Source: a virus
Lineage: Duplodnaviria > Heunggongvirae > Uroviricota > Caudoviricetes
Virus record (IMG/VR): IMGVR_UViG_2939167301_000003
Length of the DNA stretch: 37,655 bases
Reading direction: 5' to 3' (one strand)
The position numbers and the translations under genes are program-made. Below are positions 2,487 to 36,545 of the stretch, piece after piece (the stretch's first letter is position 1; the number at the start of each line of letters is the position of its first letter). Under the pieces are notes generated by a model. That model did not search any database, was not told where the DNA came from, and was given only the letters and a program-made list of their open reading frames with translations.

Positions 2487-2711
2487 ATGCATACAGTTTC
2501 TGAAAATCAGTGCGGTAAATACGCATTACTGCTGCAACAGGCCAGAACCGAAGCACAGGCCGACGCTGCGACGCGCTTTTCTTCTCATCTTGACGCCATG
2601 ATTCGCCACATCACAAAGGCGGAGTTATCCCGCGTGGAGATAGTTGAGCTGCTCAGTCAGGAGTCGGAAAAATTTCACAATATCGGATTGTCTCGCGGGG
2701 AGGTGCTTTGA
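2487..2711 (+). CDS. P2 orf80-like hypothetical protein
   Basis: ORF in the conserved early operon between B and A. Confidence 0.6.
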
Positions 2712-3013
2712 TGTCCTGTTCTCGTTCGGTTGTATTACTGAATAACGCCTTAAAAATCGCCGTTATGAAAAATGGTGATTTGTCTCTTATTCAACTTGGT
2801 ATTGATAAAGAGAAGCGCGAAATAACTGAATCTGTTATCGCGATTTATCAGAGTGAATTAAACCTCCTGTCTGATGTGGTCAATTTACTTGTTAAACGCG
2901 CTGTATTCCACAAGCAAATTTCCTCAGTGGATGAACTGACAAAATTAACGACAGAACTCGCCAGTTATTGCGCTGATGAATTTAAGAAGCTGAACGACAA
3001 AAGGAGCTGGTAA
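2708..3013 (+). CDS. P2 orf81-like hypothetical protein
   Basis: ORF start overlaps the upstream stop (ATGA). Early operon position. Confidence 0.6.
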
Positions 3014-3237
3014 TGCCGGACAACGTGGATTTTATTCAGGAACAACAGGCTGAATTACTGGAGCGCCAGATTAACGCGGCAAGGGTAAAACATTGCGGTG
3101 TTTCTGCGCTGGTTTGCGAAGAGTGTGACGCGCCAATACCTGCTGCCCGTCGTGCGGCTTATCCGTCAGCCACGCGTTGTGTTTCCTGTCAGTCAGTCTT
3201 TGAAGCAAAAAACAAACATTACCGGAGAACGGCATGA
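3013..3237 (+). CDS. P2 orf82-like, DksA/TraR-type C4 zinc-finger protein
   Basis: CxxC...CxxC (CEECDAPIP...CVSCQ) in a 74-aa protein, the same motif class as DksA/TraR. Confidence 0.7.
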   Translation: MPDNVDFIQEQQAELLERQINAARVKHCGVSALVCEECDAPIPAARRAAYPSATRCVSCQSVFEAKNKHYRRTA

Positions 3238-3509
3238 GTATTCGTATTGAAATTGGCGAACGTTATGTCGTTACCAGTGACAGCTTTCAGTTTATTCTCC
3301 ACGAGAAAAAGAGAGCGGAAAGCGGTAAAAACGCCGGTCAGGAATGGCTGGCGGTGGTTGGTTATTACCCGAAATTAGGCCAGCTCGTTTCCGGCCTGAT
3401 GCATCACGATATTCTGACCGGAAGCGCAAAATCTTTTGCTGATTTAAACGCGCAGGTTGAGCAACTCAGCAAGCGTTGTTCAGAGGCTTTTGGCTCATAT
3501 GGCCGTTAA
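3234..3509 (+). CDS. P2 orf83-like hypothetical protein
   Basis: ORF in early operon, overlapping the start of A. Confidence 0.6.
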   Translation: MSIRIEIGERYVVTSDSFQFILHEKKRAESGKNAGQEWLAVVGYYPKLGQLVSGLMHHDILTGSAKSFADLNAQVEQLSKRCSEAFGSYGR

Positions 3510-5778
3510 AGCCTCCGGGCGTTTTGTCCCTCCGTCAGCATTTACCGCAGGCACCGGTAAGGCGTTTACCGGTGCTTATGCATGGAACGCGCCACGCGAG
3601 GCTGTCGGGCGCGAAAGACCTCTTACACGTGACGAGATGCGTCAGGTGCAAGGTGTTTTATCCACGATTAACCGCCTGCCTTACTTTTTGCGCTCGCTGT
3701 TTACTTCACGCTATGACTACATCCGGCGCAATAAAAGCCCGGTGCACGGGTTTTATTTCCTCACATCTACTTTTCAGCGTCGTTTATGGCCGCGCATTGA
3801 GCGTGTGAATCAGCGCCATGAAATGAACACCGACGCGTCGTTGCTGTTTCTGGCAGAGCGTGACCACTATGCGCGCCTGCCGGGAATGAATGACAAGGAG
3901 CTGAAAAAGTTTGCCGCCCGTATCTCATCGCAGCTTTTCATGATGTATGAGGAACTCTGCGATGCATGGGTTGATGCGCATGGTGAAAAAGAATCGCTGT
4001 TTACGGATGAGGCGCAGGCTCACCTGTATGGTCATGTTGCTGGCGCTGCACGTGCTTTCAATATTTCCCCGCTCTACTGGAAAAAATACCGTAAAGGACA
4101 GATGACCACGAGGCAGGCATATTCTGCCATTGCCCGCCTGTTTAACGATGAGTGGTGGACTCATCAGCTTAAAGGCCAGCGTATGCGCTGGCATGAGGCG
4201 TTACTGATAGCTGTCGGGGAGGTCAATAAAGACCGTTCTCCTTATGCCAGTAAACACGCCATTCGTGATGTGCGTGCGCGCCGCCAGGCAAATCTGGAAT
4301 TTCTTAAATCGTGTGACCTTGAAAACAGGGAAACCGGCGAGCGCATCGACCTTATCAGTAAGGTGATGGGCAGTATTTCTAATCCTGAAATTCGCCGGAT
4401 GGAGCTGATGAACACCATTGCCGGTATTGAGCGTTACGCCGCCGCAGAGGGTGATGTGGGGATGTTTATCACGCTGACCGCGCCGTCAAAGTATCACCCG
4501 ACACGTCAGGTCGGAAAAGGCGAAAGTAAAACCGTTCAGCTTAATCACGGCTGGAACGATGAGGCATTTAATCCAAAGGATGCGCAGCGTTATCTCTGCC
4601 GTATCTGGAGCCTGATGCGCACGGCATTCAAGGATAATGATTTACAGGTCTACGGTTTGCGAGTCGTCGAGCCACACCACGACGGAACGCCGCACTGGCA
4701 TATGATGCTTTTTTGTCATCCACGCCAGCGTAACCAGATTATCGAAATCATGCGTCGCTATGCGCTCAAAGAGGATGGCGACGAAAGAGGAGCCGCGCGA
4801 AACCGTTTTCAGGCAAAACACCTTAACCGGGGCGGTGCTGCGGGATATATCGCGAAATACATTTCAAAAAACATCGACGGCTATGCACTGGATGGTCAGC
4901 TCGATAACGACACCGGCAGGCCGCTGAAAGACACTGCAGCGGCTGTTACCGCATGGGCGTCAACGTGGCGCATTCCGCAATTTAAAACGGTTGGCCTGCC
5001 GACAATGGGGGCTTACCGTGAACTACGCAAATTGCCTCGCGGCGTCAGCATTGCTGATGAGTTTGACGAGCGCGTCGAGGCTGCACGCGCCGCCGCAGAC
5101 AGTGGTGATTTTGCGCTGTATATCAGCGCGCAGGGCGGGGCAAATGTCCCGCGCGATTGTCAGACTGTCAGGGTCGCCCGTAGTCTGTCGGATGACGTTA
5201 ACGAGTACGAGGAAGAAGTCGAGAGAGTGGTCGGCATTTACGCGCCGCATCTCGGCGCGCGTCATATTCATATCACCAGAACGACGGACTGGCGCATTGT
5301 GCCGAAAGTTCCGGTCGTTGAGCCTTTGACTTTAAAAAGCGGCATCGCCGCGCCTCGGAGTCCTGTCAATAACTGTGGAAAGCTCACCGGTGGTGATACT
5401 TCGTTACCGGCTCCCACACCTTCTGAGCACGCCGCAGCAGTGCTAAATCTGGTTGATGACGGTGTTATCGAATGGAATGACCCGGAGGTCGTGAGGGCGC
5501 TCAGGGGTGCATTAAAACACGGTCGGAGAACGCCAGGTCGTCAGCAAAGAAACGGAAGCCCGTTAAAACCACATGAAATTGCACCATCGGCCAGACTGAC
5601 CCGGTCTGAACGATTGCAAATCACCCGTATCCGTGTTGACCTTGCTCAAAACGGTATCAGGCCGCAGCGATGGGAGCTTGAGGCGTTAGTACGCGGTGCG
5701 ATCGTCAATTACAATGAAAAGCAATTTTCATATCCTAGTGTAGATGAGTGGAGTGGGTTTTCTGGTTATTCAGAGTAA
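3499..5778 (+). CDS. A: Replication initiation protein A (rolling-circle HUH endonuclease)
   Basis: About 760 aa (P2 gpA is 761 aa). Starts MAVKASGRFVPPSAF as P2 gpA. HUH motif PHWHMMLF present, and catalytic Tyr candidates in GYIAKYISKN. Confidence 0.92.
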   Translation: MAVKASGRFVPPSAFTAGTGKAFTGAYAWNAPREAVGRERPLTRDEMRQVQGVLSTINRLPYFLRSLFTSRYDYIRRNKSPVHGFYFLTSTFQRRLWPRIERVNQRHEMNTDASLLFLAERDHYARLPGMNDKELKKFAARISSQLFMMYEELCDAWVDAHGEKESLFTDEAQAHLYGHVAGAARAFNISPLYWKKYRKGQMTTRQAYSAIARLFNDEWWTHQLKGQRMRWHEALLIAVGEVNKDRSPYASKHAIRDVRARRQANLEFLKSCDLENRETGERIDLISKVMGSISNPEIRRMELMNTIAGIERYAAAEGDVGMFITLTAPSKYHPTRQVGKGESKTVQLNHGWNDEAFNPKDAQRYLCRIWSLMRTAFKDNDLQVYGLRVVEPHHDGTPHWHMMLFCHPRQRNQIIEIMRRYALKEDGDERGAARNRFQAKHLNRGGAAGYIAKYISKNIDGYALDGQLDNDTGRPLKDTAAAVTAWASTWRIPQFKTVGLPTMGAYRELRKLPRGVSIADEFDERVEAARAAADSGDFALYISAQGGANVPRDCQTVRVARSLSDDVNEYEEEVERVVGIYAPHLGARHIHITRTTDWRIVPKVPVVEPLTLKSGIAAPRSPVNNCGKLTGGDTSLPAPTPSEHAAAVLNLVDDGVIEWNDPEVVRALRGALKHGRRTPGRQQRNGSPLKPHEIAPSARLTRSERLQITRIRVDLAQNGIRPQRWELEALVRGAIVNYNEKQFSYPSVDEWSGFSGYSE

Positions 5779-5985
5779 TAAACATAATGTTTTAGATTGG
5801 TTGCATAATGGTAAGGTTGCTGTTTATCTGTATATGTTAATATGATTACGCTACGTACAAACAATCGACATTTCTTTTTTTCTATATATTAATATTGATG
5901 ATTTTACTGGTGGTACAATAAGTCTATGTTGAAATTCGAGAATTGTATTATTAACAATAAAAACTGGTTCTTTTTATTATACAAG

Positions 5986-6012
5986 GACCACCTCCTTAGG
6001 AGGTGGTCTTTT
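5986..6012 (+). terminator. Rho-independent terminator after A
   Basis: Perfect 10-bp stem GACCACCTCC/GGAGGTGGTC with TTA loop, followed by TTTT. Confidence 0.7.
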
Positions 6013-6017
6013 ACTGT

Positions 6018-8501
6018 TTAACGAGGGTTTCGCGTATAGGTTTCAACTATGTCTGATGCACGTAATTTACATGTGATCAATTGTTCTCTTATAAATATCT
6101 CATCGTGTCGTTTATCACTTGTACAAATGGCCGTGATAAAACTGAGGATAGATGCTTTAAAACGTTCAAGATCATTTATGGTCATTATTCGAGACCCTTC
6201 GTTTAGTGTTGCGGCATATTCAGGCATATTAGAGTGATGTATCATTATAGGTGTGGCGGTAGCAGTTTGATCATACATGTTTCTGAACCATGCACCCGAC
6301 CCATTTAACTGATTGCAGTCATGCTTACTTATTCTTTCTGCGGTTGCTCCATTTTTGCATTCAATTACTAGATAATTGTTTTCTCCCATTGCCCATAAAT
6401 TGTCAGGTCCTTTACCTGTATCATTTTCTGGCCGTTGGCTACGAAAACCGACCAAATATGCAACTTTTTCGATAGCATCTTCGAAGGGATTCGATGTGCC
6501 CTCGGAGAAAATAAGGTTTTCTATTATTGAATTAGTATGCACAACGACTTGATTGGCCGATTCAAAATTACTTCTGAGATAGGAGCTACATTCCCTGGCC
6601 TGTTCAAGTGCCGCACCATTAAGTCTATTATATGTTACGCCGATTAGTGGTTTTAATACCCGATAGTTATCGTTTGATGCAGACTGAAGCAATATCTGAG
6701 CTTCAGATTTGTCATATAAGTTTACATATTCCGCAGCATGTTCTTTTAGATAACCCTTATAAACTTTGTCAGCTGTACTACTATCATTTTTTAGAGTTAA
6801 AGCGGCTTGTTGAAACATATTTCGTGATGCTAAGTCATATGCCAATCTTTTATTTATAGTATGCTGGTCAATCTGCTTATTTTCCAATGTTAAGCCAGTC
6901 AATATACCTTTGCTTTTTGAGACCCAGTCAGAATTGCGTAACAGACAATAATCAAGAGCACCTTTGATTGAATCAATAGTTGTATCCGGCAGTATCGATA
7001 CCAATTGCTGTGAAAGTTGAATTTGTGCTTTCGTTGCTGGAGAAAACCTTTCTAAGGAGGAGCCAAGGAAAACAGCGCCATTTAATGCTTTGCCAAGTAA
7101 GATCACTCCGCAGAAGTCGTCGCTTGATCTCACTCCTCGCCCCATTCCTTGTTCAATTTTCTGGATAATTTCATCTTTGGTTTTTTCGCTTCCAAGCAAT
7201 AAGCTTTGTGAGACTTTATCTATTAGTCTACGAACGTCAGGAAGTCCATCTATTACTAATAGACGACATGCGGTATTTGGTAAATCAATACCATCATATC
7301 TATTAACTAGGACTACTAAGCCAACATGTTGTGTCCTTAATTCTTGTACACCTTGATAAATTGTATTTTTATCTAATATTCTGTCTGCAACATCTTGCCA
7401 AAATCTAGTTCTGTAATCGGATGGTACAATTACAACAACATTATGTTTGGAGGATATCTCCTTGCACATAGCTTTGATATCTACATCAGAAAGACTAGGG
7501 TTTATAACCTGAGGCATTAGTATCATTCTATCACCAATATCACCAATTGTTTTTGGTGTTATCGGATTAGAGAGTGATTCATCCGTTATTCCGAAGTGGC
7601 TCGCTAGAATGGATTCATCGACAAGAGTAGCTGTCATGAATATTTTTCTTCTTGCGTTTGATAGGCTTGGGATCATTTGGATTGGTATGCAATGAGGTGA
7701 TATCTCTATTTTGGAAGCACTTACAACGCATTTCGATAATATTAGATTGTCTTTTATTAATGGCCATTTGAAACTCAAGTCATCATGGTCTTTATTTTCT
7801 AACAAGATTGTCATTATATCATTTATGCTTTCTTGCCATTTCCAAAATGGAACTCTCACATAAGCATTTCTATCGCCGGATTTTATCTCTAGTGTTTTTG
7901 CACCAGCTTGTGTCATTAGTGAATTTTCAAAAATTCTGAATAATTTATCATAGGCAGGGTTGTTTTTTTGAATGCTAATGGAGAATTGTTCTTCAATTGA
8001 AGAAAGGCAAGCGTGAGCATCGTCAATTATTATAGAACCTATTGGTATTCTTTGTCCATCATCTCCAACGCCAAATGCAGAACGTCCATTAACCACTTTG
8101 AATATATTTGTAACTAAAATTTCTTTACCTGCAATAAATTTGGGGGACCTCTCATCTTGAGTTACAGGTATACCAAGTTGATTAGCCTCCAAAACCACTT
8201 GCTCAACTAGATAGTTGTCAGGAACAACATATACAGCGGGACCTTCTCCTTCATTTATACAGCTTTTAAGAATGATTAACCCAACTGAAGTTTTACCGCT
8301 TCCGGTATTCATTTTTATTACATTGGTTGGGCTTCTCCTTGCTTCATACCATTTTTCCCAGACCTCTGATTGCACATCTCGAGGGTATTGAAATTTGGTG
8401 TCTTTGCTCGGTAGAGCTGTAAATATATCTCGCGGTGGAATCGCTGTGTCGCTATTTACACTGGGCGAAAGCTTGGTTAAATCAAGGAAAAAACCAGACA
8501 T
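6018..8501 (-). CDS. SF2 (DEAH-like) helicase fused to a C-terminal PD-(D/E)xK-type nuclease; candidate single-gene anti-phage defence protein in the P2 tin/old cargo position
   Basis: 827-aa ORF with a good SD (AAGAGGA) 6 bp upstream. Helicase motifs seen: Walker A NTGSGKTS, motif II IIIDDAHA, motif III MTATL, motif VI QGMGRGVR. C-terminus has E...GPD...VIECK. Strongly AT-rich compared with flanking phage genes. Confidence 0.7.
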   Translation of the reverse strand: MSGFFLDLTKLSPSVNSDTAIPPRDIFTALPSKDTKFQYPRDVQSEVWEKWYEARRSPTNVIKMNTGSGKTSVGLIILKSCINEGEGPAVYVVPDNYLVEQVVLEANQLGIPVTQDERSPKFIAGKEILVTNIFKVVNGRSAFGVGDDGQRIPIGSIIIDDAHACLSSIEEQFSISIQKNNPAYDKLFRIFENSLMTQAGAKTLEIKSGDRNAYVRVPFWKWQESINDIMTILLENKDHDDLSFKWPLIKDNLILSKCVVSASKIEISPHCIPIQMIPSLSNARRKIFMTATLVDESILASHFGITDESLSNPITPKTIGDIGDRMILMPQVINPSLSDVDIKAMCKEISSKHNVVVIVPSDYRTRFWQDVADRILDKNTIYQGVQELRTQHVGLVVLVNRYDGIDLPNTACRLLVIDGLPDVRRLIDKVSQSLLLGSEKTKDEIIQKIEQGMGRGVRSSDDFCGVILLGKALNGAVFLGSSLERFSPATKAQIQLSQQLVSILPDTTIDSIKGALDYCLLRNSDWVSKSKGILTGLTLENKQIDQHTINKRLAYDLASRNMFQQAALTLKNDSSTADKVYKGYLKEHAAEYVNLYDKSEAQILLQSASNDNYRVLKPLIGVTYNRLNGAALEQARECSSYLRSNFESANQVVVHTNSIIENLIFSEGTSNPFEDAIEKVAYLVGFRSQRPENDTGKGPDNLWAMGENNYLVIECKNGATAERISKHDCNQLNGSGAWFRNMYDQTATATPIMIHHSNMPEYAATLNEGSRIMTINDLERFKASILSFITAICTSDKRHDEIFIREQLITCKLRASDIVETYTRNPR

Positions 8502-8715
8502 TTTTTATCCTCTTACAGGTACTGCGTATTTTCATGAAAGGAGATCACTCAATAACTTCCATCGAGATCGGGTAATAACATTTGAACAGATCGCTGAATA
8601 ACATCGATGGAGATCACTTTTGACTCATTTTGTTATTCAGTGATCTCCATCAATGTTATTGGAACTTCACAGGTGTGTTGATCTGTATCTTTTGCCATTC
8701 CGGTAAAGGATACCT

Positions 8716-10257
8716 ATGCCAACAGTTCCAATTTCTATGAGAAAACTTAAAGAAATTCTTAGGCTTAAATACGGTGTTGGACTCAGCCATCGACAAATTG
8801 GTCGTAGTCTTGCAATCTCCCCTTCCGTTGTATCCAGATATGCTAATCGGGCGGCTCAACTTGGCATAAAGCAGTGGCCCTTACCTACAGGATGGGATGA
8901 TACAAAACTAAAACATGCGTTCCTTCAGACCCAGGTTAAGATGAAGAAGCACTCTCTGCCTGACTGGGCTACAGTACACCGGGAACTGCGTAATAAATGC
9001 GTGACGCTGCAGCTACTCTGGGAAGAATACTGTGAGCGTAATCCAGGCGGTTTTTACAGCTATAACCATTACTGCCGGATGTACCGTGAATGGCTCAAAA
9101 CCACTTCACCATCAATGCGTCAGGTACATAAAGCTGGCGAAAAACTTTTCGTTGATTACTGTGGACCTACCGTTGGCGTTACCGACCCTGAGACCGGAGA
9201 AATAAGAACTGCTCAGGTCATCGTAGCTGTTCTCGGGGCATCAAGTTACACATGGGCAGAGGCCACCTGGTCTCAGCAGCTTGAAGACTGGGTGATGAGT
9301 CATGTTCGCTGCTTCCAGTGGTTGGGTGGCGTTCCTGAACTTGTTGTTCCGGACAATCTGAAAAGCGCCACATCCAGGGCATGTAAGTATGATCCTGACG
9401 TTAACCCTACCTACCAGCAGATGCTTGAGCATTATAATGTCGCAGTTTTGCCTGCGCGGCCACGTAAACCGAAAGATAAAGCCAAAGCTGAAGTTGGCGT
9501 TCAGGTTGTTGAACGCTGGATCATGGCCCGAATCAGGCATGAGATCTTCTACAGCCTTGCATCGCTTAATCAGCGCATTCGGGAGTTGCTGGAAAGACTG
9601 AATAACAAAATAATGCAGAAGTTGGGTTATTCACGTGCAGAACTCTTCATCCAGCTTGATAAACCCGCACTGAAGCCTCTTCCTGAAGCCAGTTACAGTT
9701 ACACCCTGGTGAAGAAAGTCAGAGTCCATGCCGATTACCACGTGGAAATCGACAAACATTACTACTCGGTTCCATGTTCGCTGTTAGGCCAGCAACTGGA
9801 AGCATGGATCTCCGGAGAACTGGTAAGACTCTTCAATCAGGGGCAGGAGGTTGCTGTGCACCCGCGCAAGCGTACTTATGGCTACAGTACCCGCAACGAG
9901 CACATGCCTGAAGCTCATCGACAGCATGCCACCTGGACGCCAGAGCGTCTTCTGGAATGGGCGGGGCACATAGGCAGTGAAACTCATAGTTATGTGCTTC
10001 ATATACTGAACTCTCGTCCACATCCGGAACAAAGCTATCGCTTCTGCCTTGGACTCCTGAACCTTCATAAAAAATACAGTAAAGCCAGACTTAATGCAGC
10101 ATGTGCAAGAGCTCTGAAAACAAAGGTATGGCGTCTGTCAGGTATTAAATCGATCCTGGAAAAAGGTCTGGATAAACAACCTGTTCAGGATCCAAAACCA
10201 GATCTGTTATCCACGATGGAACACGAAAACGTACGCGGCAGTGAGTATTACCACTGA
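8716..10257 (+). CDS. istA: IS21-family transposase IstA
   Basis: 513 aa with N-terminal HTH (LSHRQIGRSLAISPSVVSRY) and a DDE integrase-like core; followed by istB. Confidence 0.85.
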   Translation: MPTVPISMRKLKEILRLKYGVGLSHRQIGRSLAISPSVVSRYANRAAQLGIKQWPLPTGWDDTKLKHAFLQTQVKMKKHSLPDWATVHRELRNKCVTLQLLWEEYCERNPGGFYSYNHYCRMYREWLKTTSPSMRQVHKAGEKLFVDYCGPTVGVTDPETGEIRTAQVIVAVLGASSYTWAEATWSQQLEDWVMSHVRCFQWLGGVPELVVPDNLKSATSRACKYDPDVNPTYQQMLEHYNVAVLPARPRKPKDKAKAEVGVQVVERWIMARIRHEIFYSLASLNQRIRELLERLNNKIMQKLGYSRAELFIQLDKPALKPLPEASYSYTLVKKVRVHADYHVEIDKHYYSVPCSLLGQQLEAWISGELVRLFNQGQEVAVHPRKRTYGYSTRNEHMPEAHRQHATWTPERLLEWAGHIGSETHSYVLHILNSRPHPEQSYRFCLGLLNLHKKYSKARLNAACARALKTKVWRLSGIKSILEKGLDKQPVQDPKPDLLSTMEHENVRGSEYYH

Positions 10258-10268
10258 TACGGGATCCA

Positions 10269-11018
10269 ATGATGAATCATCTTTACGAACAACTGACCGC
10301 ACTTAAACTCACCGGCTTCCGTGATGCGCTTAAAAAGCAACTTGCTCAGCCGGGCACATACCAGGAGCTGGGCTTCGAAGAACGCCTGTCATTACTGACA
10401 GCAGAAGAACTAACCTGCCGTGAAAACAGGAAGGCAGAGCGTCTGATCAAACATGCACGGTTCAGACTTAATGCTGAGTTATCAAAGCTGGATTATCGTA
10501 ACAATAGAGGGCTGGACAGGGCCCTCATCCGTTCACTCAGTCAGGGAAACTGGTTAACCCTGAAACAAAATATTTTACTGACCGGGGCCACCGGCAGCGG
10601 TAAAACGTTCCTGGCATGTGCACTTGGTCATAATGCCTGCCGACAGGGATACAAGGTCTACTATTATCGCCTTAAAGCGCTGATGGAACAGTGCTATCAG
10701 GGGCATGCTGATGGAAGATACAGCAAACTTTTGACCAGGCTGAATAATAGCGATCTGCTGCTTCTGGATGACTGGGGGCTGGAACCTCTCTCATCAGAAC
10801 AGCGTAGCGACCTGCTGGAAATAGTGGATCTGATGTACCAACGAGGCTCAATCATCGTAGTGAGCCAGTTGCCGGTGGAAAACTGGTACAAAATGATCGG
10901 AGACTCCACACATGCGGATGCCATCCTAGATCGACTGGTTCATGGCAGTATCAAGATCGAACTTAAAGGAGAATCAATGCGGAAAATACAATCTCCGTTG
11001 ACCGAAGGAGATCAGTGA
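10269..11018 (+). CDS. istB: IS21-family ATP-binding helper IstB
   Basis: 249 aa with Walker A GATGSGKTF and Walker B LLLLDDWG, typical of IstB. Confidence 0.88.
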   Translation: MMNHLYEQLTALKLTGFRDALKKQLAQPGTYQELGFEERLSLLTAEELTCRENRKAERLIKHARFRLNAELSKLDYRNNRGLDRALIRSLSQGNWLTLKQNILLTGATGSGKTFLACALGHNACRQGYKVYYYRLKALMEQCYQGHADGRYSKLLTRLNNSDLLLLDDWGLEPLSSEQRSDLLEIVDLMYQRGSIIVVSQLPVENWYKMIGDSTHADAILDRLVHGSIKIELKGESMRKIQSPLTEGDQ

Positions 11019-11270
11019 AGGTAATTTAAAAACGGTTCTGTGAAAGTGACACGAACCGATCTCCATCGATGTTACTCACCGATCTCCTTCACGGTAATAC
11101 GCAGGTACATTAGTTTAATTGTTAACGCAGAATTATCATTACCATAACTTGCATTAAGTTGCATTACATTGCATTCATAAACGTTAGCTAGGGGCGAAGT
11201 CTGAGGTTTGATGGGCTATGGTGTCCCCTTTAATACGAGGTTGCATCAAAACCGCCCCATGAAGCGGGCG

Positions 11271-11289
11271 GGCGAGGCGGGGAAAGCAC
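11271..11289. other. Phage cos site (19-nt cohesive end sequence)
   Basis: GGCGAGGCGGGGAAAGCAC matches the P2 cohesive-end sequence as recalled. Located just downstream of Q, as in P2. Confidence 0.7.
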
Positions 11290-11458: not shown

Positions 11459-12493
11459 TCAGCCGTTGTCAGTGTCCAGTGAGTAGTTTTTAAAGCGGAT
11501 GACCTCCTGACCGAGCCAGCCGTTTATCTCGCGGATCCTGTCCTGTAGCGGGATAAGCTCATTGCGGACAAAGACCTTTGCCACTTTCTCAATATCTCCC
11601 AGTGACCCGACGTTCTCCGGCTTGCCGCCCATCAACTGAAAGGGGATGCGGTGCGCGTCCAGCAGGTCAGCGGCGCTGGCTTTTTTGATATTAAAAAAAT
11701 CGTCCTTCGTTGCCACTTCACTGAGCGGGATAATTTTAATGCCGTCAGCTTTCCCCTGCGGGGCATAGAGAAACAGATTTTTAAAGTTGTTGCGGCCTTT
11801 CGACTTAACCATGTTTTCGCGAAGCATTTCGATATCGTTGCGGTCCTGCACGGCATCGGTGACGTACATGATATATCCGGCATGAGCGCCGTTTTCGTAA
11901 TACTTGCGGCGGAACAGCGTGGCCGACTCATTCAGCCAGGCAGAGTTAAGGGCGCTCAGATATTCTGGCAGGCCGTACAGCTCCTGATTGATATCCGGCT
12001 CCAGCAGGTGAAACACGGAGCCGGGCGTGAAAGGTGTCGGCTCGTTGAAGGACGGCACCCACCAGTAAACATCCTCCTCCACGCCACGACGGGTATATTT
12101 TGCCGGTGAGGTTTCCAGTCTGATGACCTTACCGGTGGTGCTGTAACGCTTTTCCAGAAACGCATTACCGAACACCAGAAAATCCAGCACAAAGCGGCTG
12201 AAATCCTGCTGGGAAAGCCACGGATGCGGGATAAATGTTGAGGCCAGAATATTACGTTTGACGTAAATCGGTGAGCTGTGATGCACGGCAGCACGCAGGC
12301 TTTTTGCCAGACCGGTAAAGCTGACCGGTGGTTCATACCATCTGCCGTTACTGATGCACTCGACGTAATCCAGAATGTCACGGCGGTCGAGTACCGGTAC
12401 CGGCTCGCCAAAGGTGAATGCTTCCATTTTCGGGGCGCTGGCGGTCATTTTTTTGGCCGCAGGTTGCGGTGTTTTCCCTTTTTTCTTGCTCAT
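11459..12493 (-). CDS. Q: Capsid portal protein Q
   Basis: 344 aa, the exact size of P2 gpQ, in the P2 position at the left end of the late region. Confidence 0.9.
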   Translation of the reverse strand: MSKKKGKTPQPAAKKMTASAPKMEAFTFGEPVPVLDRRDILDYVECISNGRWYEPPVSFTGLAKSLRAAVHHSSPIYVKRNILASTFIPHPWLSQQDFSRFVLDFLVFGNAFLEKRYSTTGKVIRLETSPAKYTRRGVEEDVYWWVPSFNEPTPFTPGSVFHLLEPDINQELYGLPEYLSALNSAWLNESATLFRRKYYENGAHAGYIMYVTDAVQDRNDIEMLRENMVKSKGRNNFKNLFLYAPQGKADGIKIIPLSEVATKDDFFNIKKASAADLLDAHRIPFQLMGGKPENVGSLGDIEKVAKVFVRNELIPLQDRIREINGWLGQEVIRFKNYSLDTDNG

Positions 12494-24496: not shown

Positions 24497-24913
24497 ATGA
24501 ATAAATTTTATAAAGGCTCTTTCTATCCGAAAGCACTAAAAGAGGTATATATCAGCGCCGGTTCATGGCCTGAAAATGGCGTTGATGTTGATGATGAAAC
24601 AATAGCAATTTACACAGGCGTAGCGCCAGAAGGCAAAACGCTGGGGGCTGATAAAAATGGTAATCCTGCATGGATTGATATCCCGCCACTCTCCGCTGAA
24701 CAACAGATTATTCAGGCTGAACAGAAAAGAACGGTATTGCGTTCAATGGCTGATAAGGAAATAGTCTGGAGACAGGATGCTTTTGATGCGGAAATCGCGA
24801 CGGCAGAAGAAACCGCCGCGTTGTCTGAATGGAAAAAATATCGGGTCTTACTGATGCGCGTTGATACATCAAATCCCGTCTGGCCTACGCCTCCGGGGGA
24901 GCAGGCCAATTGA
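24497..24913 (+). CDS. G: Tail fibre assembly chaperone G (module for the current orientation)
   Basis: 138 aa ORF immediately after H, inside the invertible segment. Confidence 0.8.
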   Translation: MNKFYKGSFYPKALKEVYISAGSWPENGVDVDDETIAIYTGVAPEGKTLGADKNGNPAWIDIPPLSAEQQIIQAEQKRTVLRSMADKEIVWRQDAFDAEIATAEETAALSEWKKYRVLLMRVDTSNPVWPTPPGEQAN

Positions 24914-25505
24914 TATCCGGCGCGGTGCTGGTATCAGTTACCGTCACCGCGTCAATGTAATCCAGCACGACGTTAAGCCGGGTGGTTTCTGTCTGCGTCA
25001 GTTTTCGCCCGGCCTGCAATTTCAGTTGAATCAGATTAATGGAAGCCATTGCAGTATCAATCAGTGACTGTCGCTGTGTTTCTGCCGCGCCTACTGCGGC
25101 GCTATGCTGTGCCTCAGTATCTGTCACCCATTTCTCACCATCCCATTCATCGTATGGCGTTAACGGGGCGACAGTGGTTGTGTTTTCAGGGTAATCCCCC
25201 GGAGTGGTGATTTCTGCTGCCTCACGGGTTTCTGTGTTATAGACTGTCTCACCCCGATGGTCCGGCACGTACTCCCACGCGGTCAGGTCGGCTGTGCGGC
25301 AAATTGCATAACCAGCCCGCCTTTCCCCGGGGGCATCAGTGCATGAATGTGCAGGAAGGCCAACGCCCACAGCCAGATATTCGGTTGACGTGCAAAGGTA
25401 TTCCCGCGTCTTATTATCGTAGCTGTGGACAACAACCTCTCCTGCAACTGTTGCCAGCCGCGATTCATTCAGCACCGCTGTAGTCATGGTTTTCTTGCTC
25501 ATCAT
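24885..25505 (-). CDS. Alternative tail fibre assembly chaperone (G'), inverse orientation
   Basis: 206 aa convergent ORF inside the invertible segment; C-terminal region resembles tail-fibre assembly proteins. Confidence 0.75.
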   Translation of the reverse strand: MMSKKTMTTAVLNESRLATVAGEVVVHSYDNKTREYLCTSTEYLAVGVGLPAHSCTDAPGERRAGYAICRTADLTAWEYVPDHRGETVYNTETREAAEITTPGDYPENTTTVAPLTPYDEWDGEKWVTDTEAQHSAAVGAAETQRQSLIDTAMASINLIQLKLQAGRKLTQTETTRLNVVLDYIDAVTVTDTSTAPDINWPAPPEA

Positions 25506-25977
25506 GCAGCCCTTACGATGTAGTTAAATGCAATGTTACGTGGCCTTGCATAACCCAGATACTGAATCCCCCAGGCTCCCACTGGAACGGGGTTCCAGAT
25601 ATGTTCTGTAGGTATACTTTTCGCTCTGAGAATATCTGAATTGGTTTCAGTTTTATCCCATCCCAGCAGGGCAATGTCGTTTACCGAAAACTGCACCACG
25701 CTGTCGGGTGATATATTGGCTTCCTGAACCAGATAAGAGCCTTTTTGCCACGACAACAACGTCCGGCTACTGTCCACTCCGCGCCCGTCATCCCAGCCAC
25801 GAATAAATTCACCACGTAAATCAGGCAATATATTTGTCGGGTAAGCCTTTGCCAGTTCCGGGTATTCTTCAGCAGAAAATGCCGCCCCGTTGCATTTCAG
25901 CCAGCCTGTTGGCAGTGTGGCTGAAGGCCACGGAACAGGCACACCAACGGGTAATACAGAGCCTTCTCCCAAACCAA
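25502..25977 (-). CDS. Alternative tail fibre C-terminal module (H'), promoterless; expressed only after inversion fuses it to the constant part of H
   Basis: Minus-strand reading frame runs through the right crossover site. Encodes a tail-fibre tip-like sequence (VPVGVPVPWP...LKCNGAAFSAEEYPELA). The track Met at 26017 is probably artefactual. Confidence 0.7.
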
Positions 25978-25989
25978 CGTTTATGAAAA
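25964..25989. other. Right 26-bp invertase recombination site (hix/gix-like)
   Basis: TTCTCCCAAACC-AA-CGTTTATGAAAA, which fits the hixL pattern TTCTTGAAAACC-AA-GGTTTTTGATAA as recalled; inverted relative to the site in H. Confidence 0.75.
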
Positions 25990-26158
25990 TGCAGAGATAA
26001 CGGGCAAGTGGCATCATCTCCGGTTTTTATTCAGGGGGATGCTCATGCTTATTGGCTATGTACGCGTGTCAACAAATGTAAGCGTCGTCTCAGCACCGTC
26101 TGGCAGATCCTGAAATTCCTGAGAGAATAGTGGACACCAAATATGGTGGACGCAATCC

Positions 26159-26563
26159 ATGAAATCATTAACCGCAGTGCGTAAAAAAAGCCCTAATTAT
26201 CCCGTTGAGTTCAAAATCAAAATGGTTGAACTCTCGCATCGACCAGAGATCTCCGTAGCGCAACTCGCTCGTGAGCATGGGATCAACGATAATTTGCTGT
26301 TCAAGTGGCGCCAGTACTGGCGCGAAGGAAAACTACGTCCTCCTTCAACAACAGAAAACAACGTGCCTGAGCTGCTCCCGATAACACTTGATGCCGAAGA
26401 TGTTGTCCCTACAACCTCCCCCCGGTCACAACCTGTAGCTGCTGCGACACCTGAATCACTCAATATCAGCTGTGAAGTGACGTTCCGGCACGGATCACTC
26501 CGTCTGAATGGTGCCATCAGCGAAAATATCCTGAACCTGCTGATACGGGAGCTCAAACGTTGA
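26159..26563 (+). CDS. IS66-family Orf1 (TnpA, HTH protein)
   Basis: 134 aa, first of three ORFs; start of the next ORF overlaps its stop. Confidence 0.8.
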   Translation: MKSLTAVRKKSPNYPVEFKIKMVELSHRPEISVAQLAREHGINDNLLFKWRQYWREGKLRPPSTTENNVPELLPITLDAEDVVPTTSPRSQPVAAATPESLNISCEVTFRHGSLRLNGAISENILNLLIRELKR

Positions 26564-26907
26564 TCCCATTACCATCAGGGACAAAGATCTGGCTGGTCGC
26601 TGGCATCACCGATATGAGAAACGGCTTCAACGGCCTGGCGGCAAAGGTGCAGACGACGCTGAAAGACGATCCGATGTCAGGTCACGTTTTTATCTTCCGT
26701 GGGCGTAATGGCAGTCAGGTAAAGCTCCTCTGGTCTACCGGCGATGGACTGTGTCTGCTGACCAAACGGCTGGAGCGCGGCCGCTTCGCCTGGCCGTCAG
26801 CCCGGGATGGCAAAGTGTTCCTCACACCGGCACAGCTGGCGATGCTGCTGGAAGGTATCGACTGGCGGCAGCCTAAAAGACTGCTTACGTCCCTGACTAT
26901 GTTGTAA
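26560..26907 (+). CDS. IS66-family Orf2 (TnpB)
   Basis: 115 aa; the MIPLPSG...IWLVAGITDMR N-terminus is typical of IS66 Orf2 as recalled. Confidence 0.85.
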   Translation: MIPLPSGTKIWLVAGITDMRNGFNGLAAKVQTTLKDDPMSGHVFIFRGRNGSQVKLLWSTGDGLCLLTKRLERGRFAWPSARDGKVFLTPAQLAMLLEGIDWRQPKRLLTSLTML

Positions 26908-26955
26908 GCCTCTTTATCCTGGTCGACGCTGAATGAGCCTGGTAATATACCCGGT

Positions 26956-28491
26956 ATGAGCAGCTCACTTCCTGACGATATCAATGCACTGAAACGTCTC
27001 CTTGCCGAACAGGAGGCGCTGAACCGTGCCCTGCAGGAAAAGCTGAACGAGCGTGAACGCGAAATAGACCATCTGCAGGCACAGCTGGATAAGCTGCGCC
27101 GGATGAACTTCGGCAGCCGCTCGGAAAAAGTCTCCCGTCGTATCGCACAGATGGAAGCTGACCTGAAGGCACTTCAGAAAGAAAGTGATACCCTTACCGG
27201 TCGGGTTGACGACCCGGCCGTGCAGCGCCCGCTGCGTCAAACCCGCACCCGCAAACCGTTCCCCGAATCACTCCCCCGCGATGAAAAACGGCTGCTGCCG
27301 GCAGCGTCATGCTGCCCGGAATGTGGAGGCTCGCTGAGCTATCTGGGTGAGGATGCCGCCGAACAGCTGGAGCTGATGCGCAGCGCCTTCCGGGTTATCC
27401 GGACTGTACGTGAAAAGCATGCCTGTACTCAGTGCGATGCCATCGTGCAGGCCCCCGCGCCTTCACGGCCCATCGAGCGGGGTATCGCAGGACCGGGGCT
27501 GCTGGCCCGCGTGCTGATCTCAAAGTATGCAGAGCACACCCCGCTGTACCGCCAGTCTGAAATGTACGGCCGCCAGGGCGTGGAGCTGAGTCGTTCACTG
27601 CTGTCGGGCTGGGTGGATGCATGCTGCCGGCTACTGTCACCGCTGGAAGAAGCGCTTCAGGACTATGTGCTGACTGACGGTAAGCTCCATGCTGATGACA
27701 CGCCTGTCCCGGTGCTGTTGCCAGGCAATAAGAAAACGAAGACCGGGCGGTTATGGACCTACGTTCGTGACGACCGTAACGCCGGGTCAACGCTGGCGCC
27801 GGCGGTGTGGTTCGCTTACAGCCCGGACAGAAAAGGCATCCATCCGCAGACCCATCTTGCGGGGTTCAGTGGTGTACTGCAGGCGGATGCATACGCCGGG
27901 TTCAACGAGCTGTACCGGGATGGCCGGATAACGGAAGCCGCCTGTTGGGCTCACGCCCGCCGTAAAATCCACGATGTGCACGTTCGCACCCCGTCAGCCC
28001 TGACGGAGGAAGCGCTGAAACGGATCGGCGAACTGTACGCCATCGAGGCAGAGATAAGGGGAATGACGGCGGAGCAGCGCCTTGCCGAACGTCAGTTGAA
28101 AACGAAACCGCTGCTGAAATCCCTGGAAAGCTGGCTGCGTGAAAAGATGAAAACCCTGTCGCGACACTCAGAACTGGCGAAAGCGTTCGCATACGCCCTG
28201 AACCAGTGGCCGGCGCTGACGTACTATGCAGATGATGGCTGGGCTGAGGCGGACAATAACATCGCTGAAAATGCGTTGCGGATGGTCAGTCTGGGCCGCA
28301 AAAACTACCTGTTCTTCGGTTCGGATCATGGAGGAGAGCGGGGAGCGCTGCTGTACAGCCTGATCGGGACGTGCAAACTGAACGGAGTGGAGCCAGAAAG
28401 CTACCTCCGCTATGTCCTTGACGTCATAGCCGACTGGCCGATAAACCGGGTCGGCGAACTGCTCCCCCTGGCGCGTAGCACTGCCGACTGA
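26956..28491 (+). CDS. IS66-family transposase (Orf3 / TnpC)
   Basis: 511 aa with an N-terminal leucine-zipper-like coiled coil, a CxxC zinc finger (CPECGG...CTQC) and a DDE-type core. Confidence 0.88.
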
Positions 28492-29160
28492 ATAACACAT
28501 CCCCGTCAATACGGTTCTTGCTGCACGCTTACCAACAAATGACCAGAACACGGAATTGCAGCGTAACGCGCTGGAGTGCGCAGGATGTGAGCTGATTTTT
28601 GAGGATAAAATCAGCGGCACGAAGTCCGACAGGCCGGGGCTGAAAAAACTGCTCAGAACATTATCGGAAGGTGACACTCTGGTAGTCTGGAAGCTGGACC
28701 GGCTGGGGCGTAGTATGCGGCATCTGGTCATTCTGGTTGAGGAGCTGCGCGAACGCGGCATTAATTTTCGCAGCCTGACGGATGCCATTGATACCAGCAC
28801 GCCGATGGGGCGTTTTTTCTTTCATGTGATGGGTGCCCTGGCTGAAATGGAGCGAGAACTCATTGTCGAGCGGACACGCGCCGGACTGGAGGCGGCCAGA
28901 GCCAAAGGTCGTATTGGTGGCAGACGTCCGAAACTCACCGCGAGTGAGTGGGAGCAGGCCGGGCGGTTGCTGGCTGCAGGGGAATCACGTCAACGCGTGG
29001 CACTGATTTTTGATATTGGCCTGTCCACGCTCTATAAAAAATTCCCCGCCTCAGTGACAAAAAATAAATTGTGTCATCCCTTAGCCAACCGGGACAAATA
29101 GCCTGACATCTCCGGCACAACTAAAAATATCACTCACCCATTAACCACGGAGTTAAACGG

Positions 29161-35903: not shown

Positions 35904-36545
35904 ATGGAAAAAGTTATAATTGAGCTTGATAATCGTTGGGAGTTAGCTGATTTCGCGGTCTTAACGAAAGAGTATTTGCAGCTATATGGTTTTTTTTATG
36001 GCCTAAAAGGAGGATCAAGAGGATATTCAACAATGCCTTGGGAGGGTGGGCACAGTGTGGTGAACTTTTTTAGAGGGGCTTACAGTGCGACTCCACCAGA
36101 TTTACGTCCTGTAGTGAAAAAAATTCAGTATGCCTCTCCTGGCTTTATTGAATTGTCTGCTCTTATTGATATCTCTTGGCAGATTGCTGAGTTAGTTACT
36201 GCTGTTGGTGGAAGTATTCTGGCTGCCAACAAAGTTTACGATCAGGTGATGCGTACATATCGACAAAGAGAATGGGCAAAGTTGAAATCAGAGAAGCTGC
36301 GTATACAGAATCAAATTAAAGAGATTGAACTTGTTTCTGACGCAGTTAAATCACTTGAATCTGTGATGGCACTTAGTGAAGAACAACGTAAAAACTTGGT
36401 TCAACTATCGGGGGCAGATGAACTGGTTCAGTTAAAGATACTTTTGGCTGTTTACCGACGGTTATCTCCTCTTGTTGAGTTGCAAAACAGCGGGAAAGCT
36501 AATTTTTCTGCTGGGAAAAATAAAAATTTAAAAGCGTCCGATTAA
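35904..36545 (+). CDS. Hypothetical 213-aa protein, AT-rich orphan between ogr and fieF
   Basis: Intact ORF, visibly more AT-rich than neighbouring phage and host genes. Followed by a strong intrinsic terminator. No recognisable motif; the C-terminal half looks coiled-coil-like. Confidence 0.55.
   Translation: MEKVIIELDNRWELADFAVLTKEYLQLYGFFYGLKGGSRGYSTMPWEGGHSVVNFFRGAYSATPPDLRPVVKKIQYASPGFIELSALIDISWQIAELVTAVGGSILAANKVYDQVMRTYRQREWAKLKSEKLRIQNQIKEIELVSDAVKSLESVMALSEEQRKNLVQLSGADELVQLKILLAVYRRLSPLVELQNSGKANFSAGKNKNLKASD

Follow-up and report, generated by a model that had tools for sequence, protein, structure and literature searches.

The 827-aa cargo gene of a P2 tin/old hotspot belongs to the Hna family of anti-phage helicase-nucleases

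Introduction

In P2-like prophages, the slot between gene A and cos can hold exclusion genes such as tin and old. In the window (the whole stretch of DNA that was analysed, 37,655 nucleotides), this slot holds a long helicase-like gene instead. Is this gene a new kind of defence, or a known one under another label, and how would it act? The original prediction had taken it for an undescribed system that could not be assigned to a named family.

Location of the gene

The P2-like prophage is located between cpxP and fieF. The cargo gene, called hna below, and its surroundings are the following.

3457..5778, plus strand: P2 gene A (replication endonuclease), left edge of the hotspot; ORF, RefSeq annotation of the identical locus
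5983..6011, no strand: perfect hairpin with a 13-bp stem, 7 bp past the hna stop and 3' of gene A; terminator-like site
6018..8501, minus strand: hna-family gene, 827 aa; ORF, PDB Hna match, PADLOC PDC-S28, Foldseek, RefSeq
11271..11289, plus strand: P2-type cos GGCGAGGCGGGGAAAGCAC, right edge of the hotspot; exact match
11459-12493: portal gene

The sequence GGCGAGGCGGGGAAAGCAC at 11271 is presumably the P2 cos, or cohesive-end, sequence, and similarity to the P2 backbone restarts at ~11242. The ORF at 6018..8501 on the minus strand starts with ATG and encodes 827 aa. Its GC content is 0.374, lower than that of gene A (0.533) and of the Q-to-tail block (0.565), and its description as one AT-rich gene on the opposite strand between gene A and cos was correct. 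The hairpin at 5983..6011 is likely a terminator common to the convergent gene A and hna. Once an insertion sequence is set aside, hna is the sole cargo of the hotspot. The analysis supports horizontal acquisition of this cargo of the P2 tin/old slot.

Domain organisation of the protein

The regions and motifs of the protein were placed on the window as follows (Sm, S. meliloti).

7062..8384, minus strand: SF2 helicase-like core, aa 40-480; Pfam ResIII/DEAD and Helicase_C_2, invariant columns
within 7062..8384, minus strand: SF2-core motifs, namely Q-motif R41/Q44 (mapping to Sm R36/Q39), Walker A K70, motif II, MTATL and QGMGRGVR
8286-8309, minus strand: codons of the Walker A K70 motif (window protein coordinates)
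8010-8033, minus strand: motif II, D160-D161-A-H163 (window protein coordinates)
6519..7061, minus strand: all-alpha region, aa 481-661, with a low-confidence stretch at 620-628; AF2 secondary structure, pLDDT
6021..6509, minus strand: C-terminal segment with P699/D700/E714/K716; aligns with Sm P712/D713/E727/K729

Pfam matched ResIII/DEAD at 40-172 and Helicase_C_2 at 400-471, and gave no match past residue 480. The motifs are at aa 65 (NTGSGKTS), 157 (IIIDDAHA), 289 (MTATL), 451 (QGMGRGVR), 698 (GPD) and 712 (VIECK). Both the SF2 helicase motifs and the C-terminal nuclease triad were thus found where they had been read, and the core residues of the six motifs are invariant in 34 homologues sharing 51-90% identity.

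The AF2 model of the protein has a pLDDT of 82.4. It falls below 50 at 14-19 and 34-39, in an N-terminal segment modelled as a low-confidence loop. The ~200 aa between helicase and nuclease had been said to lack any signature. This holds for Pfam, but the region is confidently predicted to be all-helical (helices 482-661) and is collinear with S. meliloti Hna, at 24% identity. In the model, the low-confidence stretch 620-628 is a possible counterpart of the flexible Hna linker. The predicted C-terminal elements are H670-683, E687-689, E701-706, E709-715, H726-742 and E748-754. A single polypeptide joining an SF2 helicase to a PD-(D/E)xK nuclease is supported.

Assignment to the Hna family

Using phmmer against the PDB, the window protein matched 10uj/9ykj/9yhn (845 aa) with E=7e-121, residues 60-792 aligning with 62-806. 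Entries 10UJ/9YKJ/9YHN are cryo-EM structures of S. meliloti Hna, as monomer and dimer (Hooper et al. 2026, PMC13381803). The two proteins share 33% identity over 727 columns, and a profile made from the 34 homologues matched S. meliloti Hna with E=1.4e-164 over Sm residues 2-841. The best Foldseek match of the AF2 model was 9yhn, 'Hna Monomer' (E=3.5e-62, TM 0.88/0.89, 834 columns). The runners-up, CasDinG, XPD and DinG, stood at TM ~0.35, and they are likewise reported as relatives in the Hna paper (PMC13381803). The size of the protein and its Pfam pattern, ResIII plus Helicase_C_2, are those tabulated for Hna.

Nuclease residues P699/D700/E714/K716 align with Sm P712/D713/E727/K729 and are invariant in the 34 homologues. 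These Sm residues were probed by mutation, K729 providing the nuclease-dead mutant (PMC13381803). The ATP-site residues R41, Q44, K70 and D160/D161/H163 are also present and invariant in the 34 homologues, R41/Q44 aligning with Sm R36/Q39. All residues mutated in Hna are conserved in the window protein, save the triplet of the dimer loop.

PADLOC matched the window protein to PDLC04986 (PDC-S28) with 1054.6 bits, residues 6-825 covering profile positions 2-826 of 831, and to PDLC04987 with 386.8 bits. S. meliloti Hna scored 941 bits against PDLC04986. PDC-S28 is Hna, because one model matches both the window protein (1055 bits) and S. meliloti Hna (941). Sequence homology, predicted fold and the common PADLOC model agree, so the window protein is a clear full-length member of the characterised Hna family and not an undescribed system. 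The likeness to 'Hna or Nhi' that had been proposed was right for Hna. Nhi was rejected: it is characterised by an SF1 helicase and, in reverse domain order, a nuclease at the N-terminus, in ~610 aa, whereas the window protein has an SF2 helicase and a C-terminal nuclease in 827 aa.

Distribution and previous records

The window protein is RefSeq WP_000012516.1, where its sole label is 'DEAD/DEAH box helicase family protein'. UniRef and nr use the same label, and the name Hna is given to WP_000012516 in none of the three. Among 5,426 complete E. coli genomes, 70 carry the gene; in all of them it occupies a variable hotspot and is a single allele, with identity of 99.6% or more. About 900 contigs have the exact protein sequence, and at least 1000 Salmonella contigs have a variant with more than 90% identity to it. 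The clade of the window protein extends, at ~53% identity, across proteobacteria and cyanobacteria, and shares 33% identity with S. meliloti Hna.

Homologues elsewhere are solitary: one lies in a Pectobacterium integrase island beside LmuB_C genes, one in a P. aeruginosa integrative element and another in a Cronobacter lambdoid prophage. With the P2 hotspot, this makes four different mobile contexts. A megablast search of positions 5700-8800 against phage genome records matched the IS end alone. By tBLASTn against phage records, one Salmonella match of 30% identity was obtained, and none in the P2-like phages whose backbone resembles that of the prophage. The sequenced P2-like virions of the phage collection searched therefore lack the gene.

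An ORF of 213 aa without a Pfam match lies next to the Pectobacterium homologue. The window has a 213-aa ORF of its own at 35904-36545, also without a Pfam match, which resembles PD-T4-10_B. A single BLASTP comparison of the two gave an E-value of 2e-4, with 23% identity across 82 aa, and the idea of a partner gene was set aside as a coincidence.

The protein had already been catalogued: Table S5 of Rousset et al. 2022 (PMC9122126) has WP_000012516 as P2-hotspot cargo in at least 13 entries. [quoted passage not shown] Table S5 makes no link between WP_000012516 and Hna, and the accession does not appear in the table of tested systems of the same paper (PMC9122126). When full texts were searched for WP_000012516, no paper body contained it; the accession was found in the supplementary table only. 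The claim of an undescribed system was thus contradicted both by the family assignment and by this catalogue.

The value of the present assignment as a discovery is small, the phenotype, trigger, biochemistry and cryo-EM structures of Hna having been published. Its value is curatorial: Hna, PDC-S28 and the 'ResIII/DEAD' cargo of P2 are three labels for one thing, and in the PADLOC copy used the family is still filed as an unvalidated candidate. Given the wide spread of the gene, re-annotation as Hna would reach many clinical genomes. It also assigns Hna to the P2 slot that Tin occupies. Hna was reportedly published one year after the 2022 catalogue of Rousset et al.

Insertion of ISEc12 upstream of the gene

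The original prediction had counted one gene in the hotspot. This is true of the cargo, but a 2,581-bp ISEc12 at 8523-11103 had been missed. The features of this region are listed below.

8502..8522, minus strand: remaining native 5' sequence, 21 nt with Shine-Dalgarno AAGAGGA; comparison with the IS-free locus L001
8518-8522 and 11104-11108: GGTAC target duplication of ISEc12
8523..11103, plus strand: ISEc12 (IS21 family), 2,581 bp; boundaries by alignment to the IS-free L001, RefSeq
8716-10257: ISEc12 istA; Pfam rve, RefSeq
10269-11018: ISEc12 istB; Pfam IstB_IS21, RefSeq
11104..11241, minus strand: native hna upstream region, cargo-specific, 138 bp, GC 0.38, moved 2.58 kb off by the IS
11149-11155, 11159-11165 and 11169-11175: three AATGCAA heptads with 10-bp spacing, in the native upstream region

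ISEc12 was inserted 21 bp upstream of the hna ATG. In 68 of the 70 carrier genomes the native upstream region adjoins the ATG directly, and the ISEc12 junction is found in 2/70; the ISEc12-bearing strains are 4/2-1 and 219, while M217 and AR435 are examples of IS-free carriers. A standard promoter scan of the IS end and the native upstream region gave no minus-strand promoter, and a relaxed scan of both gave weak candidates only (at most 8/12 matches). Since ISEc12 splits hna from its native upstream region, the window copy may be silenced or differently expressed. It is conceivable, though unlikely, that the element acts as a natural switch, by which a potentially toxic gene for abortive infection is silenced or its expression re-wired. 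In strains 4/2-1 and 219, what looks like the 'upstream region' of hna is the insertion sequence, a point to heed when the gene is cloned; cloning the window gene 'with its own upstream region', as had been advised, would fail for this reason.

Predicted mode of action and alternatives

S. meliloti Hna is an ATP-repressed 3'-5' exonuclease of single-stranded DNA, with neither unwinding activity nor cutting of double-stranded DNA (PMC13381803). In its structure, HEL2 contains a network of alpha-helices, a long unstructured linker leads to NUC, and a dimerisation loop in HEL1 (T30/D31/P34) is responsible for ATP-dependent autoinhibition (PMC13381803). Hna of S. meliloti and of E. coli both respond to phage SSB (PMC10732053). 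An 'EcHna', which may differ from the window sequence, was obtained as monomers (97 kDa) and dimers (194 kDa); it was part of a panel in which all operons gave defence against one or more phages (bioRxiv 10.1101/2025.07.10.664194).

By homology, the window gene very probably encodes a single-protein anti-phage defence of the Hna family, the sole cargo of the tin/old hotspot, working as S. meliloti Hna does. The founding Hna paper is said to be that of Sather et al. in 2023, on S. meliloti, and an E. coli Hna, possibly different from the window sequence, was reportedly tested in it too. In the uninfected cell, ATP would be bound through the SF2 core (R41/Q44, K70, DDAH 160-163), and the ATP-locked protein would be an autoinhibited homodimer with its nuclease domain disengaged. 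It would not unwind DNA. Upon infection, a phage single-stranded-DNA-binding protein would compete at the dimer interface and free the monomer, whose PD-(D/E)xK site (D700/E714/K716) would degrade, from 3' to 5', DNA that has free 3' single-stranded ends. Replication would then be stopped and the cell killed or arrested, without release of phage progeny. By analogy, the gene is most likely an abortive-infection, DNA-degrading defence gene. That it is a horizontally acquired immunity gene, possibly acting by abortive infection or nucleic-acid degradation, had been anticipated, and the analysis supports this view.

The residues mutated in the Sm dimer interface, T30/D31/P34, map to D34/T35/Y39 in the window protein; the dimer contact and the step of competition with SSB are therefore not simply transferable. 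We consider it unlikely that the P2-borne clade responds to another phage cue or relies on another autoinhibitory contact, with ISEc12 as a natural switch of its expression. Quite unlikely also is a Hna-like protein of a distinct clade that retains the Hna chassis and is triggered by something else (another replication protein, DNA ends and DNA damage being examples) or is regulated otherwise than by an ATP-locked dimer. The 33% identity to Sm Hna and the changed loop triplet would fit such a protein, and the loop segment is nevertheless kept within the clade of the window protein, where K33, Y39 and P40 are invariant. Moreover, purified EcHna was inactive on all the DNA substrates tried, for which its authors suggest a specific viral cue (bioRxiv 10.1101/2025.07.10.664194), and the Hna authors expect orthologues to vary in what they recognise. 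On the other hand, the low-confidence N-terminal loop of the window protein coincides in position with that of Sm Hna, EcHna dimerises (bioRxiv 10.1101/2025.07.10.664194), and E. coli Hna is reported to be SSB-responsive like the S. meliloti protein (PMC10732053). Action in the manner of S. meliloti Hna is the more probable reading.

A repair or replication helicase of the DinG/XPD type, with a role for the prophage or its host and not in immunity, is most improbable. There is a distant structural likeness to DinG, XPD and CasDinG, and the Hna paper compares Hna with the ExoDinG 3'-5' exonucleases (PMC13381803). However, no close match to a housekeeping or repair helicase was found: TM is only ~0.35 for DinG/XPD, against 0.88 for Hna, and there is no Fe-S cluster, a single Cys (C81) lying between Walker A and motif II. 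Carriage by 70 of 5,426 E. coli genomes as one allele in a variable hotspot, the tBLASTn result for P2-like phages and the movement of the gene among unrelated mobile elements also argue against it, as does the lack of unwinding activity of the Sm homologue (PMC13381803).

Hardly any weight can be given to an orphan type III Res-like subunit or restriction-type helicase-endonuclease that would cut foreign double-stranded DNA directly, without abortive infection. Pfam ResIII does match at 40-168 (E=1.2e-9), and NCBIfam, in which no usable family was found, gave as its best match the dnd restriction enzyme model, N-terminal and at 23 bits against a cut-off of 600. The ResIII match is, however, limited to the generic RecA1 lobe, the second lobe being Helicase_C_2 of the DinG/XPD type; the order of fold matches is Hna, then CasDinG, XPD and DinG; and the characterised homologue, Sm Hna, does not cut double-stranded DNA (PMC13381803). 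No methyltransferase or second gene was found in the cargo module or beside the homologues on other elements. The resemblance to type III Res that had been pointed out was therefore right as to the missing Mod gene, but superficial.

Comparison with other systems

Like S. meliloti Hna, the window protein is a single polypeptide of ~830-845 aa arranged as HEL1, HEL2, helical region, linker and PD-(D/E)xK NUC. Both are solitary on mobile DNA, have no Fe-S cluster and match one PADLOC model. The window protein is 18 aa shorter, and its gene is on a P2-like prophage in Enterobacteriaceae, whereas that of S. meliloti is on the pSymA megaplasmid. PDC-S28 shows no difference in sequence from the window protein, being a bioinformatic candidate label for the Hna family.

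With P2 Old and Tin, the system shares the slot between gene A and cos and its predicted function, prophage-encoded exclusion. Tin acts through a phage SSB (T4 gp32). Neither protein is related in sequence to the window protein, and the PADLOC scan gave no Old-type match; Old is an OLD-family ATPase-Toprim nuclease, whereas the window protein is an SF2/PD-(D/E)xK fusion. Nhi and Hachiman HamAB likewise pair a nuclease with an NTPase of helicase type, and according to published reports each is responsive to phage SSB or to replication intermediates. Hachiman differs in being a two-protein system, and neither Nhi nor Hachiman was matched in the PADLOC scan of the window protein. CasDinG, DinG and XPD, the best structural neighbours outside Hna, share the SF2 core with Helicase_C_2 and a reduced Arch-like insertion. 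They differ in having 11-16% identity at TM ~0.35 and another nuclease module than the C-terminal PD-(D/E)xK of the window protein, which matched the PADLOC typeIV_DinG model with E=2.6e-12.

Location of the hna gene in the prophage

The window carries a P2-like prophage whose integration site lies between cpxP and fieF. In E. coli 4/2-1 (NZ_CP023834), an identical locus is annotated by RefSeq in the order integrase, Cox, gene A (replication endonuclease), helicase gene, IS21-type istA/istB, portal, terminase and capsid. The following features were located around the helicase gene, called hna hereafter:

5983-6011, perfect hairpin, just beyond the hna stop codon
6018-8501, minus strand, hna-family gene, ATG start, 827 aa
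8518-8522 and 11104-11108, GGTAC, 5-bp target duplication flanking ISEc12
8523-11103, ISEc12 (IS21 family, istA/istB), 2,581 bp, 21 bp upstream of the hna ATG

The ORF was real and correctly placed in the original prediction, and it was AT-rich as claimed (GC 0.374; adjacent gene A, 0.533; portal-to-tail block, 0.565). From about 11242 onward, the window again resembles sequenced P2-like phages, and GGCGAGGCGGGGAAAGCAC, starting at 11271, is presumably the P2 cohesive end. Together with the gene order, these two observations place hna within the gene A-to-cos (tin/old) cargo hotspot, as had been proposed. That the hotspot holds one gene was true once the IS was set aside: ISEc12 also lies there, and the cargo module without it, about 2.9 kb (5779-8522 plus 11104-11241), contains hna only.

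Assignment to the Hna family

The decisive result was obtained by sequence search of PDB chains, in which residues 60-792 matched an 845-aa 'Helicase ATP-binding domain-containing protein' (10uj, 9ykj, 9yhn; E = 7e-121). Entries 10UJ and 9YKJ are cryo-EM structures of Hna (helicase-nuclease abortive infection) from Sinorhizobium meliloti, Sm Hna, as monomer and as dimer, respectively (Hooper et al. 2026, PMC13381803). With a profile of 34 homologues, the match widened to Sm Hna residues 2-841 (E = 1.4e-164); pairwise identity was 33% over 727 columns. The structure prediction and fold search that had been suggested were run. Foldseek with the AlphaFold2 model (mean pLDDT 82.4) ranked 9yhn, 'Hna Monomer', best (E = 3.5e-62, TM 0.88/0.89, 834 columns), followed by CasDinG, XPD and DinG at TM of about 0.35, the same distant fold neighbours as described for Hna (PMC13381803). 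Of the suggested HMM searches, Pfam recognized the helicase lobes only (ResIII/DEAD 40-172, Helicase_C_2 400-471), with no match past residue 480, and PADLOC-DB gave a full-length match to the candidate system PDC-S28 (PDLC04986, 1054.6 bits). Sm Hna (residues 62-806) scored 941 bits on this same model, so PDC-S28 and Hna are one family. PHROGs holds a near-identical family, phrog_16128, with no function assigned. On sequence and modelled fold, the window protein is a member of the known, mechanistically characterized Hna family.

The locus was also already catalogued. In Table S5 of Rousset et al. [quoted passage not shown] The protein is absent from the tested-systems table of that paper. 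The claim of an undescribed system was therefore abandoned: hna is a known family in a place already catalogued for it. That the gene encodes a single-protein defence of the helicase-nuclease kind, probably acting by abortive infection, had been correctly recognized. None of the sources queried uses the name Hna for the window protein, all giving a generic DEAD/DEAH box helicase, and PADLOC v2.0.0 keeps the family under the candidate label PDC-S28.

Motifs, domains and residue mapping

All motifs of the original prediction were found (NTGSGKTS at residue 65, IIIDDAHA at 157, MTATL at 289, QGMGRGVR at 451, GPD at 698 and VIECK at 712), and their key residues were invariant across the alignment of 34 homologues (51-90% identity to the window protein). 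The 200 residues left unassigned earlier correspond to predicted helices (482-661) and a low-confidence stretch (620-628), a modelled arrangement in agreement with Hna, for which a helical extension of HEL2 and an unstructured linker are described (PMC13381803). The protein lacks an Fe-S cluster; C81 is the only cysteine between Walker A and motif II.

Residues of the window protein mapped to Sm Hna, with their published roles
R41/Q44; Sm R36/Q39; Q-motif, ATP coordination (published Sm Hna work)
K70 and D160-D161-A-H163; Sm K72 and D162-D163-A-H165; Walker A and motif II
P699/D700/E714; Sm P712/D713/E727; aligned; nuclease site, Mg2+ coordination (published Sm Hna work)
K716; Sm K729; aligned; K729A abolishes nuclease activity (PMC13381803)
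D34/T35/Y39; Sm T30/D31/P34; dimer interface in Sm Hna (PMC13381803), identity not kept

In the AlphaFold2 model, the D34/T35/Y39 segment is a low-confidence loop too, and it is conserved inside its own clade. The dimer contact and the trigger of this clade may differ from those of Sm Hna.

Probable mechanism

Sm Hna works as a 3'-5' exonuclease that depends on Mg/Mn and acts on DNA whose 3' ends are single-stranded; it does not attack dsDNA or RNA (PMC13381803). It has no unwinding activity, and its ATPase is stimulated by ssDNA (published Sm Hna work). ATP binding produces an autoinhibited homodimer via a HEL1 loop, with the nuclease domain disengaged (PMC13381803). Published Sm Hna work further describes mutants without ATP binding or dimerization as hyperactive and toxic. 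Even when ATP is present, the dimer is broken by a T7-gp2.5-like phage SSB and the nuclease becomes active; SSB escape mutants lack this effect. The result is abortive infection. By homology, the window protein most likely acts in the same way. [quoted passage not shown]

Hna of both S. meliloti and E. coli is reported to be activated by phage SSB (PMC10732053). A 2025 preprint describes EcHna as a mixture of 97-kDa monomer and 194-kDa dimer that, in the absence of a cue, shows no activity on DNA in vitro, and each operon of the panel to which EcHna belongs protected against at least one coliphage (bioRxiv 10.1101/2025.07.10.664194). These E. coli proteins may differ in sequence from the window protein.

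Distribution

In E. coli, hna was present in 70 of the 5,426 complete genomes searched, all copies being chromosomal and at least 99.6% identical. The exact window protein occurred on about 900 contigs; a variant of >90% identity was encoded by at least 1000 contigs of Salmonella, monophasic Typhimurium 4,[5],12:i:- among them. In Cronobacter turicensis, a 77%-identical homologue (7001-9490 of its contig) is a moron of a lambdoid prophage, flanked by replication gene P on one side and RusA and Q-antiterminator genes on the other; the same defence gene thus fills cargo slots in temperate phages of two unrelated families. In Pectobacterium, a copy of 80% identity lies in an integrase island adjoining Lamassu-type (LmuB_C) genes, and in P. 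aeruginosa one of 54% identity lies in an integrative element. Homologues of about 53% identity were found in Legionella, Pseudomonas and many cyanobacteria. Overall, hna behaves as a defence module that is both mobile and self-contained.

ISEc12 insertion and hna upstream region

The ISEc12 boundaries came from comparing the window with an IS-free copy of this prophage. The insertion left the Shine-Dalgarno AAGAGGA attached to hna and displaced by 2.58 kb the 138 bp of native, cargo-specific sequence that lay upstream of the gene and now occupies 11104-11241. Junction-spanning searches found the native junction in 68 of the 70 carriers and the unusual IS junction in only two (strains 4/2-1 and 219). 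Consensus promoter scans of both upstream configurations were uninformative; the insertion may silence this copy of hna. In the native region, the heptad AATGCAA occurs three times at intervals of exactly 10 bp (minus strand, 11149-11175), the farthest copy beginning 88 nt upstream of the hna ATG in IS-free genomes. No strong sigma-70 consensus was found near the heptads, which may form an element of the cargo module that binds a regulator or is associated with a promoter.

In E. coli M217, the one strain inspected for this, an ISEc12 copy lies within gene A of the same prophage (2510-5086 of locus L001, from NZ_AP019189) and not before hna, which is intact with its native upstream region. The M217 phage would be replication-defective, a pattern suggestive of a decaying prophage that has kept its defence gene.

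Other features of the window

35904-36545, plus strand, 213-aa ORF, GC about 0.42, between ogr and host fieF
24885-26017, minus strand, inverted tail-fibre/assembly cassette
26100-28550 (approximate ends), IS66-family element, the second IS of the window; ORFs 26159-26563, 26560-26907 and 26956-28491
28556-29101, DNA invertase gene

The 213-aa ORF lies in prophage-specific DNA present in 159 of the 5,426 genomes. It matched PADLOC PD-T4-10_B models with E = 1.3e-34 and, across most of a model of 244 positions, E = 7e-23; Pfam and PHROG gave no match, and no A-type partner ORF was found beside it. Located at the att-proximal end, the ORF may be either a second cargo related to defence or a remnant. 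The IS66-family ORFs matched HTH_Tnp_1, TnpB_IS66 and DDE_Tnp_IS66. The element, with the tail-fibre cassette on one side and the invertase gene on the other, probably disrupts an invertible tail-fibre host-range switch.
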